Assembly: GCA_951406725.2 (NCBI GenBank)
Contig: OX597830.1
Span: 31,930,001-31,994,000, forward strand
Length of the DNA: 64,000 nucleotides
Direction: 5' to 3'
Source of the DNA: Octopus vulgaris
Lineage: Eukaryota
In this document: piece by piece, positions 13,035 to 56,245 of the stretch
How the letters are laid out: each line of letters begins with the position of its first letter
Numbering within the stretch: the stretch's first letter is position 1
Notes under the pieces: generated by a model
Seen by the model: the letters and a program-made list of their open reading frames with translations, nothing else
Told to the model about the DNA's origin: nothing
Databases searched by the model: none
Program-made: the position numbers and the translations under genes

Positions 13035-13191
13035 TTATTTACATTATTTACATTTAACAGATATTTGTCCTCATCTTGTTTGTTGTTAATACGTTTCGGT
13101 TGATATATCCTCCAACCTTCATCAGGTGTCTTGGGGAAATTTCCAACCCGAGTTCTCATTCCTCAGGTAATTTTCAATGTTGTTGTTATTA

Positions 13192-13235
<44 letters not shown>

Positions 13236-13440
13236 GTTATTATTATTATTATCATTATTGAGTGGCTGTATGGTAAGTAGCTTGCTTACCAACCACATGG
13301 TTCTGGCGGGTTCAGTCCCACTGCACGGCACCTTGGGCAAGTGTCTTCTACTATAGCCTCAGGCCAACCAAAGCCTTGTGAGTGGATTTGGTAGACGGAA
13401 ACTGAAAGAACCCCATTGTATATATATGTGTGTGTGTGTT

Positions 13441-13477
<37 letters not shown>

Positions 13478-13796
13478 TTGTGTGTCTGTGTTTGTCCTCC
13501 TAGCATCGCTTGACAACTGATGCTGGTGTGTTTACATCCTCGTCACTTAGCAGTTCGGCAAGAGAGACCAATAGGATAAGTACTAGGTTTACAAAGAGTA
13601 AGTCCTGGGGTTGATTTGCTCGACTAAAAGTGGTGCTCTAGCATGGCCACAGTCAAATGACTGAACCAAATAAAAGAATAAAAAAAGAATTATTATTATT
13701 ATTATTATCATTAATATTATTCAGGTCACTACCTGGAATTGAACTCAGCATCTTGGGGTTAGTAGCCTGGGATCTTAACCACTACATCATATGCCC
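13035..13796 (-). mobile_element. tRNA-head/(AAT)n/hammerhead-tail element, minus copy (SINE A nested in the linker)
   Basis: Head 13722-13796 (gggcatatgatgtagtggttaag...gagttcaattccagg); body 13035-13180 with acac-CTGATGA-aggttg..caacc-GAAA-cgta. Same layout as 55168-55454. Confidence 0.8.
13259..13688 (+). mobile_element. SINE family A, near full length
   Basis: Head to tail present; inserted in an (ATT)n tract. Confidence 0.9.
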
Positions 13797-13851
13797 ACGG
13801 GCATATGGCATAGTGGTTAATAATAATATTAATAATAATAATAATGATAAT

Positions 13852-13928
<77 letters not shown>

Positions 13929-13930
<2 letters not shown>

Positions 13931-14239
13931 GCAAAAGGGGCTGATTGCTACCTAGCTCAGATACCAGAAAACACCAAAATAGCAGAAATTCAAAAGATAA
14001 TGCTCATGTGAACTGCCCATATCCTACGCAAAATACTTTCTATGTAATCTCAAGTTTTAAAACAAACATAATTTTCTTATGGTTTCTTAAACATTCTCTG
14101 GGACAACACTATGTGCAAAACCAAATATATGGCACCCTAGGCATAGCACTAACATGAACTTCTAACTTGTTGTCTCTTGGGGTCTCTGGGTGAGACTTGG
14201 AACCAACTTGTACAAATGTAAAGCAAAAGTCAAACACAA

Positions 14240-14245
<6 letters not shown>
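13929..14245 (+). mobile_element. R4/Dong-type non-LTR retrotransposon 3' end in (TAA)n
   Basis: Translates AKGADCYLAQIPENTKIAEIQKIMLM*TAHILRKILSM*, matching the R4-clade C-terminus QK..L.GTA.ILRK. Then a 3' UTR and (AAT)n. Confidence 0.7.
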
Positions 14246-14277
<32 letters not shown>

Positions 14278-14279
<2 letters not shown>

Positions 14280-14826
14280 GCCCTGATGCAGTACCAGGCA
14301 GTGGCTCTCATGACTTCTGATCTTAACTGATTGGAAGTGTTATTATTTTGTCTTGGTATAAAAGATGGGCTACAGCAAATATTCTGCTCAATACCACAGA
14401 TTTACTTGTCAGTTGTTTGACCTTAACCACTTGAGCATGTCCCTTAGTGGCTGACAATATGTGCATCTCTGATCACGAGCGTAAGTAGTGGGGGAGCATC
14501 ATAGCCATGTGTTGAGAGGGATTCTTGGGGGTTTGAATAATTTACCTCTGGAAACATGGGTGGTTCTTTCAACATCCTTAAACAACCCTTATTCAAGGAC
14601 CTTTTGAGCGGGATGGGTTACTCGACCAGAAGAAAATTCTAACTGGTCCCCACCGGCAAGGTCATGTGCTGTTTATCTTGATATGAGATCACCATGTCGC
14701 GCACATATGGTTGTGATGCATGTTCCTGGTGTACCCTTATCAGACGGGTAGTCATGATGGGTATACTGGGCTTCGTATATTTTACCCCAGTCTCACTTTG
14801 ATGGCATGCACTGCTCTCTCACTCAA
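14278..14826 (+). mobile_element. Unclassified ~550-bp insertion bounded by (AAT)n
   Basis: Complex-sequence block precisely flanked by TAA repeats; no ORF; orientation inferred. Confidence 0.5.
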
Positions 14827-14996
14827 TAGTAATAATAATAATATCATCGAAAAATACCTTAGGAATGAGAACTCAGGTTCGAAATTTCCCCAAGACACTT
14901 GATGAAGGCTGGAGGAGATATCAGTCGAAACGTGTTAACAACAAACAAAAAGGAGGACAAATATCGTCAAATGTAAATAATGTAAATAATGTAAAT
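14827..14996 (+). mobile_element. Hammerhead-tail body, plus copy of the element at 13035-13796
   Basis: catcgaaaaataccttaggaatgagaactcaggttcgaaatttccccaagacac-TTGATGA-aggctg..cagtc-GAAA-cgtgtt...(aatgtaaat)n. Reverse complement of 13035-13180. Confidence 0.8.
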
Positions 14997-54862: not shown

Positions 54863-55167
54863 CAAAACAAAAGTGAATTTCTCTTTTACTGGTCAATACA
54901 TTGTCATCATGCTAAGGTGCTGCCATCTGTGACCAGAAATGAATAGGAAAGAGTAATGCAATAAACAAAAACTTTAAGTTATCACAATAACAATGGTAGT
55001 AATTGTTGTTGCTGTAGTTGTTGTTGTTTAACCCCAGGTCAACCCTGACCGATCATATTTATGATCAAAAGCAACCTGGTTATGATTACACCATTTTTAT
55101 TTGGGGCTCAAACAAACCAAGATTGGTCATCAAAATTGGTCATCAAGCATAGGAAAAATATAGAGAC

Positions 55168-55324
55168 ACATTATTTACATTATTTACATTTGATGGATAT
55201 TTTTCTTTCATCGTGTTTGTTGTTAACACAGCGTTTCGGCTGATATACCCTCCAGCCTTCATCTGGTGTCTTGGGGGAAATTTCGAACCTGAGTTCTCAT
55301 TTCTAAGGTATTTTTCGATGTTAC

Positions 55325-55370
<46 letters not shown>

Positions 55371-55471
55371 GTTATTGTCCAGGTTACTGCTTGGAATCAA
55401 ACTCGGAATCTTGGGGCTAGTAGCCCGTGCTCTTAACCACTATGCTCTATGCCCGTGGGCATATGGCGTAG
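55168..55471 (-). mobile_element. tRNA-head/(AAT)n/hammerhead-tail element, uninterrupted copy with short 5' inverted duplication
   Basis: Head 55377-55454, linker 55321-55376, body 55168-55320. HHR-like 55226-55269 reads acac-CAGATGA-a-ggctg..cagcc-GAAA-cg-CT-gtgt. Inverted head copy at 55457-55471. Confidence 0.8.
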
Positions 55472-56245
55472 AACTGTATACAGAGACACACTGTATACAT
55501 ATATATAACTATATACAAAGACACACTTATATAGAAACACACACACACACATACATACATACATACATACATACACACATAAAATAAGCATAAAGAAGAA
55601 AAGAAAGGCAAAAATCTTGTCTATTTTACTTGTTTTCTTTTTAATTCAATTATCTCACAATTTCTTAGGTTTAATCTGATAGAAACACACACACACACAT
55701 ACACACATTCATATACATACACCCACAAGCAGATACACGTTTACACATACACACGTTTTATGTAGCATGTTTTAGCTGTAACGTTTCTCTTGATTGATGT
55801 GTTTAGCTGATAACCATGGTAACTGCTGTAAACAAACTTTGAGCAAAAGAGACACTGCTGCTGCTGCCAAAGATGATGATGATTATGATGATAATGACAA
55901 TGCTGCTGCTGATGACGATGACGACACTGATGATGGTCATGATGATGATGACGATGATGATTATGATAATGATGATGATGACTATGATCACAGTAATGGT
56001 GATGACAATGATGATGATGCTGATGATTATGACAATGACGATGACCATTATGTCAACGATAATGATGATAATGATGATGCTGTTGGTGGTGGTGGTGGTG
56101 GTGGTGCTAATGATGATGATGATGATTGCTTCTAACATAAGCTCATGACCTGGAACTTTGATGAGGTGGTGGATGTTTGATTCAATTAACCCCAGTACTT
56201 AATAATAACGATGATAATGATAATGATTTCAATAATGATAATACA

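Follow-up and report, generated by a model that had tools for sequence, protein, structure and literature searches.

At 55 kb of the window, the whole 64-kb stretch of Octopus vulgaris DNA that was analysed, lies a short element read on the minus strand (55168-55471), which by its sequence is almost certainly a Penelope-like element (PLE), namely a solo pLTR insertion of a Penelope/Poseidon-type retrotransposon. The following features make up the locus:

55159-55169, plus strand: probable target-site duplication (TSD), left copy TATAGAGACAC, the last 2 nt of which overlap the element end
55168-55321, minus strand: body, the first ~150 nt region of the pLTR, with the ORF start ATG at 55300-55298, ending at the short (tail-less) 3' end
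55225-55270, minus strand: minimal type I hammerhead, overlapping ORF codons ~11-25
55322-55379, minus strand: (AAT)n tract of variable length, located between head and ORF start and host to secondary insertions
55380-55454, minus strand: tRNA-derived head, closest sampled isotype Arg, with boxes mutated here and the cloverleaf not intact
55450-55461, no strand: TGCCC-NN-GGGCA hairpin core, centre of the head-to-head junction, native to the 3' UTR/head boundary of the parent
55457-55471, plus strand: second (inverted) arm, head +1 to +15, matching the family majority
55469-55479, plus strand: PLE tail end TAGAACTGTAT, distal end of the second arm, fused to it via a TAG microhomology
55479-55489, plus strand: probable TSD, right copy TACAGAGACAC, with 1 mismatch to the left copy

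The original prediction had described an independent, uninterrupted copy of a tRNA-hammerhead element in the order head, (AAT)n and body, with a gccc-ac-gggc junction and an inverted extension of only 15 bp. On the minus strand the order head (55454-55380), (AAT)n and body is borne out, as is the junction, centred at 55455-56; GCCC-NN-GGGC occurs twice in the 64-kb window, at 13793 and 55451. The inverted arm (55457-55471) indeed measures 15 nt; it agrees with the family majority throughout and differs from the left arm at 3 positions, but the insertion does not stop there, as the adjoining 55472-55479 read AACTGTA(T), the end of the PLE tail (TAGAACTGTAT is an 11-nt match reaching 8 nt past the arm), and lead into the TSD candidate. 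"Uninterrupted" applies to the left arm, whose 3' end on the minus strand lies at 55168-55170 within AATGTAAAT repeats, but not to the right one. What had been called the body is the ORF start region of a PLE, overlapped by a minimal type I hammerhead. Residues 1-10 and 9-33 of the family ORF are matched there by tblastn, one extra C shifting the frame, and the same body sequence continues into the ORF in L202-L230.

Similarity to a related locus at 13-15 kb ends at the element borders (87-90% identity in the body by alignment), and the flanks of that locus are without homology. Since homology is confined to the element, the 55 kb copy is an independent insertion, as had been claimed, and a segmental duplication of the two loci is ruled out. 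Contigs under two species labels cover 55419-55530 with 2 differences, so that the junction is not an assembly artefact. Among the 63,989 11-mers of the window four lie within 1 mismatch of the TSD candidate, both copies included; no empty-site contig for the locus was found, and the 11-bp TSD stays a candidate. ARAGORN called no tRNA in the whole window and five family loci, and at lowered threshold returned only a mis-registered fold. Rfam matched no hammerhead or tRNA at the 55 kb locus and in five family loci, and over the whole window the matches listed comprised only microsatellite-driven miRNA matches below cut-off. The tRNA-like head and the hammerhead rest on motif and alignment evidence. 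No long meaningful ORF was found in the 64-kb window. The 55 kb copy is an aged, decayed and dead insertion of a known element class.

In a script-computed majority sequence the PLE family has a unit of ~2.66 kb with an 835-aa ORF that begins inside the body, arranged as ORF end, ~30-nt UTR, tRNA-like head, (AAT)n, ORF start with hammerhead, ~30-nt tail and remaining ORF. Natural pieces agree with this sequence, the N-terminal and endonuclease matches being recovered. The loci compared are best-scoring matches and not random draws: 85 were selected on the body (90 minus 3 self matches and 2 duplicates), 29 on the head after removal of the self match, and 29 each on the endonuclease, RT and N-terminal regions. 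The body is present in 27 of the 29 head-selected loci, which bears out head-(AAT)n-body as a family property, and in four loci of this set a GIY-YIG-like coding region lies upstream of the head. The ORF stop is followed by the head after ~30 nt in 25/29 endonuclease (GIY)-selected loci (by eye), while body or tail continues into the ORF in 22/29 N-terminal loci by BLAST and 28/29 by eye; L188 is a near-full-length copy, and L209, L216, L222 and L223 carry the pLTR in direct tandem. A reading as a free-standing, SINE-like tRNA-hammerhead element was accordingly rejected: the short unit as a whole, its head as well, lines up with copies that carry the ORF, and it represents the pLTR of an autonomous PLE.

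Walking 5' from the endonuclease region, a Pfam match to RVT_1 was found in L183 (E 3e-11). The family ORF shares 37% identity over 808 columns with an Anolis protein, its best named relative, and 57% with P0007, the N-terminus of which has the hammerhead-encoded TPD.G...PKRCVNN peptide; the relatives P0001-P0009 range from 57% to 75% identity. In the endonuclease region VYSIPCSCGRLY aligns to Anolis VYRIPCSCGQVYIG (E 6e-24; variant YKG). Pfam PF01541 left this region unscored, the N-terminal piece and both endonuclease pieces were without Pfam match, and no additional cysteine cluster was noticed by eye in the linker of the ORF. An RT ORF, an endonuclease region, a pLTR containing the ORF start, an inverted arm with tail and a hammerhead motif place the family among EN+ PLEs, probably in the Penelope/Poseidon clade. 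In evenly spaced stretches totalling 800 kb of the 2.8-Gb assembly, a random sample, five loci were encountered, which extrapolates to ~17,500 loci genome-wide (95% range 5,700-40,800). The ORF beyond the pLTR was present in 0/5 of them, and short copies greatly outnumber ORF copies.

The hammerhead of the 55 kb copy has every part that had been read from it, with ACAC/GTGT as stem I, GGCTG/CAGCC as stem II (6 bp including a G-U pair; fold z -2.1), CAGATGA and GCT. The latter two represent the core changes U4>A (55264) and U16.1>C (55231), and by established core rules this copy is probably inactive. The family majority has the intact CUGANGA/GAAA/NUH core that the 55 kb copy lacks, and the proposed consensus holds across 92 arms, where the core reads CTGATGA in 58 and CTGAAGA in 19, and GAAA is present in 81; in the family form, CG-TT and then the stem I strand come after GAAA. 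The common non-CpG core substitution is at the free N7 position and exchanges Asp and Glu in the ORF. Minimal type I hammerheads are described by CUGANGA, an unpaired nucleotide before helix II, G10.1-C11.1, a long helix II, a palindromic CG at 15.2/16.2, no helix III and a helix I of 4-5 bp (PMC4209133). The family form matches all of these traits of metazoan PLE hammerheads without difference, whereas the 55 kb copy departs by its two core mutations (Cervera and De la Pena 2014, PMC4209133). The same two changes are found in L002 (1501-1653), which was chosen as best match; with thousands of copies to draw from, convergence by chance would be enough to explain this. L006 has a second hammerhead-like motif ~300 nt upstream of its central body (CTGATGAG ... 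GAAAC) with a very long stem II loop, which probably comes from another PLE family.

The related locus was originally counted as two further copies, giving three in all. Its features are:

13035-13800, minus strand: left arm of another insertion of the family, with body at 13035-13180, head to 13796 and a split AAT tract
13799-14996, plus strand: probable right arm of the same insertion, with head +1 to +22 jumping into a TAA tract and body at 14837-14996

A single inverted insertion probably accounts for both segments, 13035-13800 and 13801-14996, as its two arms, the right one carrying secondary insertions at 13933-14245 and 14280-14826, so that the count of three would not stand. No TSD was seen and both ends are of the short type, which makes the reading as one insertion only probable. 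The segments 13254-13690 and 14280-14826 are two other abundant repeats in AAT tracts, matching 162 and 25 fetched loci, respectively, and the former begins with a tRNA-like head. At 13933-14245 (plus strand) a LINE 3' end with a ...LM.TAHILRK-type C-terminus lies inside the (AAT)n tract of the PLE; by its motif we take it to be a restriction-like-endonuclease element of the Dong/R4 type, which targets TAA repeats. The same LINE-type 3' end is located upstream of the body in L020, L021, L030 and L094.

Across the family, the 3' ends of the 85 body-selected loci fall on two sites, 46 at the short site and 38 at the tail ~30 nt further, with 1 elsewhere. In 51 of these loci an inverted arm is present that has a 3' end of its own, and the two arms combine a short with a tail end in 47/51. 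TSDs, for which a check had been proposed, were searched as flank matches of at least 8 nt and detected in 26/51 pairs, as compared to 2.3% in a mismatched-pair null, a few of the matches being of low complexity; many pairs are flanked by TSDs of 8-15 bp. Non-CpG changes are common to both arms at 0.65, as compared to 0.16 in random pairs (46 pairs, 0/5000 permutations), indicating that both arms derive from one template. Which arm reaches further 5' was compared in 63 short/tail pairs: it is the tail arm in 27, the short one in 18 and neither in 18. The difference is not significant (P 0.23) and argues against a strict one-way fold-back; arm asymmetry can also arise by deletion after insertion, so that fold-back may still have taken place. 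Inverted arms, one-sided tail, TSDs and hammerhead are already known PLE traits, the first three having been published for other members of the group (PMC11167929, PMC3846280). As a rule head-to-tail arrays are absent, and copies are single or head-to-head, with short direct tandems in few loci (e.g. L155). The identity of a non-LTR retrozyme, which is described as short hammerhead units in head-to-tail tandem arrays (10.64898/2026.07.22.740005), was therefore rejected.

In ORF-bearing copies the head is preceded by ATAATTGCCC-AY-GGGCATAT, an imperfect native hairpin predicted at -17..+13 (z -1.6), a context seen in L041, L047, L051, L060 and L082-L110. The gccc-ac-gggc core is thus inherited and not made by the inversion, and the native hairpin can become a perfect palindrome if the cDNA ends at about -7. 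Junctions were scored in the 57 body-selected arms that reach the head start (L166, one further palindrome case, falls outside the scoring range). A palindrome of at least 11 nt was found in 8 arms from 7 loci, one of 8-10 nt in 3 and the core only in 9, while 33 arms begin at -5..+6 with a non-symmetric junction and 4 continue into native sequence. Thus, the idea that most copies bear the inverted head holds for some inverted arm (51/85 loci), but not for the exact symmetric junction (7/85 loci). Over both sets the palindromes measure 17-35 nt in 10/12 cases, and 64 and 75 nt in one locus. Beyond the palindrome, several arms switch at a microhomology into the AAT tract, the head end or the body (by eye). 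Recurrent microhomology is also seen in L154, L160, L170, L059 and L033, where the second arm breaks at head +17 to +24 and rejoins downstream at the short repeats AGTG, AAGA and TAA. What had been taken for a variable inversion length largely reflects microhomology deletions in a complete second arm that ends at the fixed PLE 3' ends. Priming of the second strand by a hairpin, as originally suggested, survives in part: the hairpin is involved at the 55 kb junction, but simple copying alone cannot yield this locus, because the left arm has the full head and no tail, while the right arm has the tail and lacks ~290 nt, so that neither can simply have been copied from the other. The locus arose either by the joining of two cDNAs via the hairpin or by later deletion within a fold-back product.

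What is unusual about the family is its head, which resembles tRNA-Arg, contains A and B boxes and lies shortly before the ORF. Compared with 9 sampled tRNA types the head is closest to genomic tRNA-Arg (49/75-76 identical, z 7.1-7.7), and the positions of the A box (+8) and the B box (+53) in the family follow canonical tRNA numbering, with the cloverleaf broken; in the 55 kb copy both boxes are mutated. As an observation apart, L236 (1-3072) contains seven tRNA-Cys-like genes clustered within 3 kb. The head probably serves the family as a promoter for Pol III; the chance that Pol III makes the full coding RNA appears about even. Among the 67 loci with the head on either arm, the 5' end falls at -17..+6 in 46, as compared to 4.4 expected under a constant hazard, further out in 5 and earlier in 16; values of -14 to -17 mostly represent BLAST over-extension across the palindrome. 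The native hairpin coincides with this pile-up and could itself cause it. Sequence upstream of the head is present in four N-terminal loci and 5/67 short copies, which indicates that longer RNAs or template jumps exist.

TTTT does not occur in the 2,669 nt of the sense strand (P 0.027 with synonymous shuffling, 0.003 with free codon choice), and GGGG is likewise absent (P 0.28 and 0.045 under the same two nulls). In 73 natural copies 22 TTTT were counted in 83,865 nt (0.26/kb), as compared to 22 in 6,726 nt (3.3/kb) in five ORF pieces chosen from three other PLE families with comparable T content, i.e. a ~12-fold lower frequency, with the reservation that these control families are distant (~28-30% protein identity); no tRNA-free Poseidon sister family with DNA was present among the fetched loci. 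Phe depletion was rejected as support for TTTT avoidance, since the nine closest homologues are equally Phe-poor, and for the same reason low TTTT may be a trait of the subclade. Of 30 tRNA-like loci from this genome, 23 have a run of at least four T within 40 nt. In the 370 nt before the ORF no TATA, CCAAT or CRE motifs were found, while the control L351 has 1 TATA, 5 CCAAT and 6 CRE motifs, located after its ORF. L351 (1744-4087; G000:C16:20835000-20841000), L352 and L364 represent a separate, young PLE family. Many of its 781-aa frames are intact, a further ORF of ~360 aa lies upstream, and CCAAT, CRE and TATA motifs abound in its pLTR.

RNA polymerase III normally makes short RNAs only. 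The best explanation of the data, to which we assign a probability of about 60%, is nevertheless a PLE RNA started by Pol III, two RT start sites and arms joined by a hairpin. In an upstream pLTR, Pol III would start ~5-10 nt before the head and, with no TTTT in its path, would continue into the ORF. The RT/GIY-YIG protein would then nick both strands of AT-rich DNA, and reverse transcription would begin inside the RNA at two sites near the ORF start, for both of which the anole element in vitro provides a precedent. A start at the 5'-proximal site would give the short, head-to-tail SINE-like copies that dominate in the genome. A cDNA reaching the RNA 5' end would finish in the native TGCCC-NN-GGGCA hairpin, and this hairpin end could prime the second arm or anneal to it. 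At 55 kb the second arm would have lost head +16 through tail, either by a jump at the TAG microhomology or by later deletion. The wider claim, which falls a little short of an even chance, is that this is an autonomous, protein-coding Penelope in which the Pol II promoter was swapped for a tRNA-derived Pol III one, TTTT was purged over 2.7 kb, and tens of thousands of SINE-like copies arose from the element's own 5' end without a SINE master.

The alternative that survives best, although unlikely, keeps the same PLE and regards the head as a captured SINE fragment, from which Pol III yields only short RNAs and hence the SINE-like copies, while Pol II read-through or a promoter that escaped detection would supply the ORF mRNA, and base composition would account for the missing TTTT. 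It is consistent with the poor processivity ascribed to Pol III and with the argument that the autonomous partners of TRIMp3 elements need Pol II (PMC10886601), with the equal absence of GGGG, with close homologues as poor in Phe, and with the failure of all five random-sample loci to extend beyond the pLTR. Against it, TTTT is missing over the whole 2.67 kb and not just in the first 300 nt, with the ~12-fold rarity relative to other PLEs, and Pol II motifs upstream of the ORF were not found. Less likely again is an inert relic as head, in which case the native hairpin of the same PLE would stall the RT and prime a fold-back second strand, and later microhomology deletions in the unstable palindromes would produce the asymmetric arms. 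Such a course would fit the imperfect hairpin predicted at -17..+13, the recurrence of the symmetric junction in 8/57 arms and its appearance among loose ends in runs under three further species labels, the origin of both arms from one template, and the self-priming that has been proposed for palindromic PLE junctions (PMC3846280). However, the 33/57 arms beginning at -5..+6 have non-symmetric junctions, a stall would be expected at ~+13, the 3' foot of the stem, rather than at -7..+5, each 55 kb arm has sequence missing from the other, and the canonical A/B spacing and the TTTT depletion are left unexplained. A separate non-autonomous, SMalpha-like tRNA-hammerhead SINE with its own masters, sharing only its 3' end with the PLE, is very improbable: short copies are far more numerous than ORF copies, SMalpha provides the example of a Pol III-transcribed hammerhead SINE (PMC6765202, PMC8490949), and a minor variant with the extra C of the 55 kb copy exists (5/68 and 2/26 in sets not selected on that copy), but the short unit is colinear with ORF-bearing copies from the head onward, there is no diagnostic split, as 1/15 N-terminal copies also have the extra C, and 3' ends, tail and TSDs all agree with the PLE.

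Poseidon_Ac of Anolis (PMC11167929) and Adineta Pen2a (PMC3846280) share with the octopus family an ORF of ~840 aa with RT and C-terminal GIY-YIG, the ORF start inside the pLTR with a hammerhead over it, a ~30-nt tail, optional and present on one arm, that lies between two RT start sites, an inverted 5'-truncated arm, TSDs of 8-10 bp and palindromes at the pLTR 5' ends; the promoters described for their pLTRs are of Pol II type (TATA/Inr) or unspecified (PMC11167929, PMC3846280). Unlike these, the octopus family has an A/B-box tRNA segment with (AAT)n, a pile-up of 5' ends there and no TTTT. The Schistosoma elements SMalpha and Sjalpha are of tRNA origin. Like the octopus family, where the promoter is a candidate, they combine a Pol III promoter with a type I hammerhead, and in their tandems a unit is transcribed from the promoter of the preceding one; SMalpha forms non-coding tandems, and its hammerhead is canonical (PMC6765202, PMC8490949), whereas the octopus family is protein-coding and head-to-head with TSDs, and has a minimal hammerhead in its ORF. 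The TRIMp3 elements Cassandra, Helenus and Ajax likewise carry a small-RNA-derived promoter in the terminal repeat, with the boxes kept and the RNA structure lost, and are described as non-autonomous LTR elements of <1.3 kb (PMC10886601). By contrast, the octopus family is an autonomous-type PLE of 2.66 kb. OK, OR1 and OR2, which Ohshima and Okada are said to have described in 1994, are reportedly tRNA-derived, high-copy octopus SINEs, OR1 and OR2 reportedly deriving from tRNA-Arg; the head of the present family is likewise tRNA-derived, and the family is likewise high-copy in octopus. The head or the short form may already be catalogued as one of these or in Repbase/Dfam. The full-text literature searched, largely from outside subscription journals, yielded no PLE with a tRNA-derived or Pol III promoter, and a listing of Penelope families mentions no tRNA head or Pol III feature in its available part (PMC13282606).

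The single 55 kb copy is itself an ordinary dead insertion. For annotation, many copies of the family would be mislabelled as SINEs. Independently of Pol III, the family provides natural statistics on PLE integration, with one template and one of each RT start site (47/51). Transcription of the full unit by Pol III, if real, would mean that a polymerase to which only short non-coding elements are usually assigned drives a protein-coding retrotransposon, which would raise the question of how an uncapped RNA gets translated and would provide one route by which SINE-like repeats arise straight from a Penelope element.
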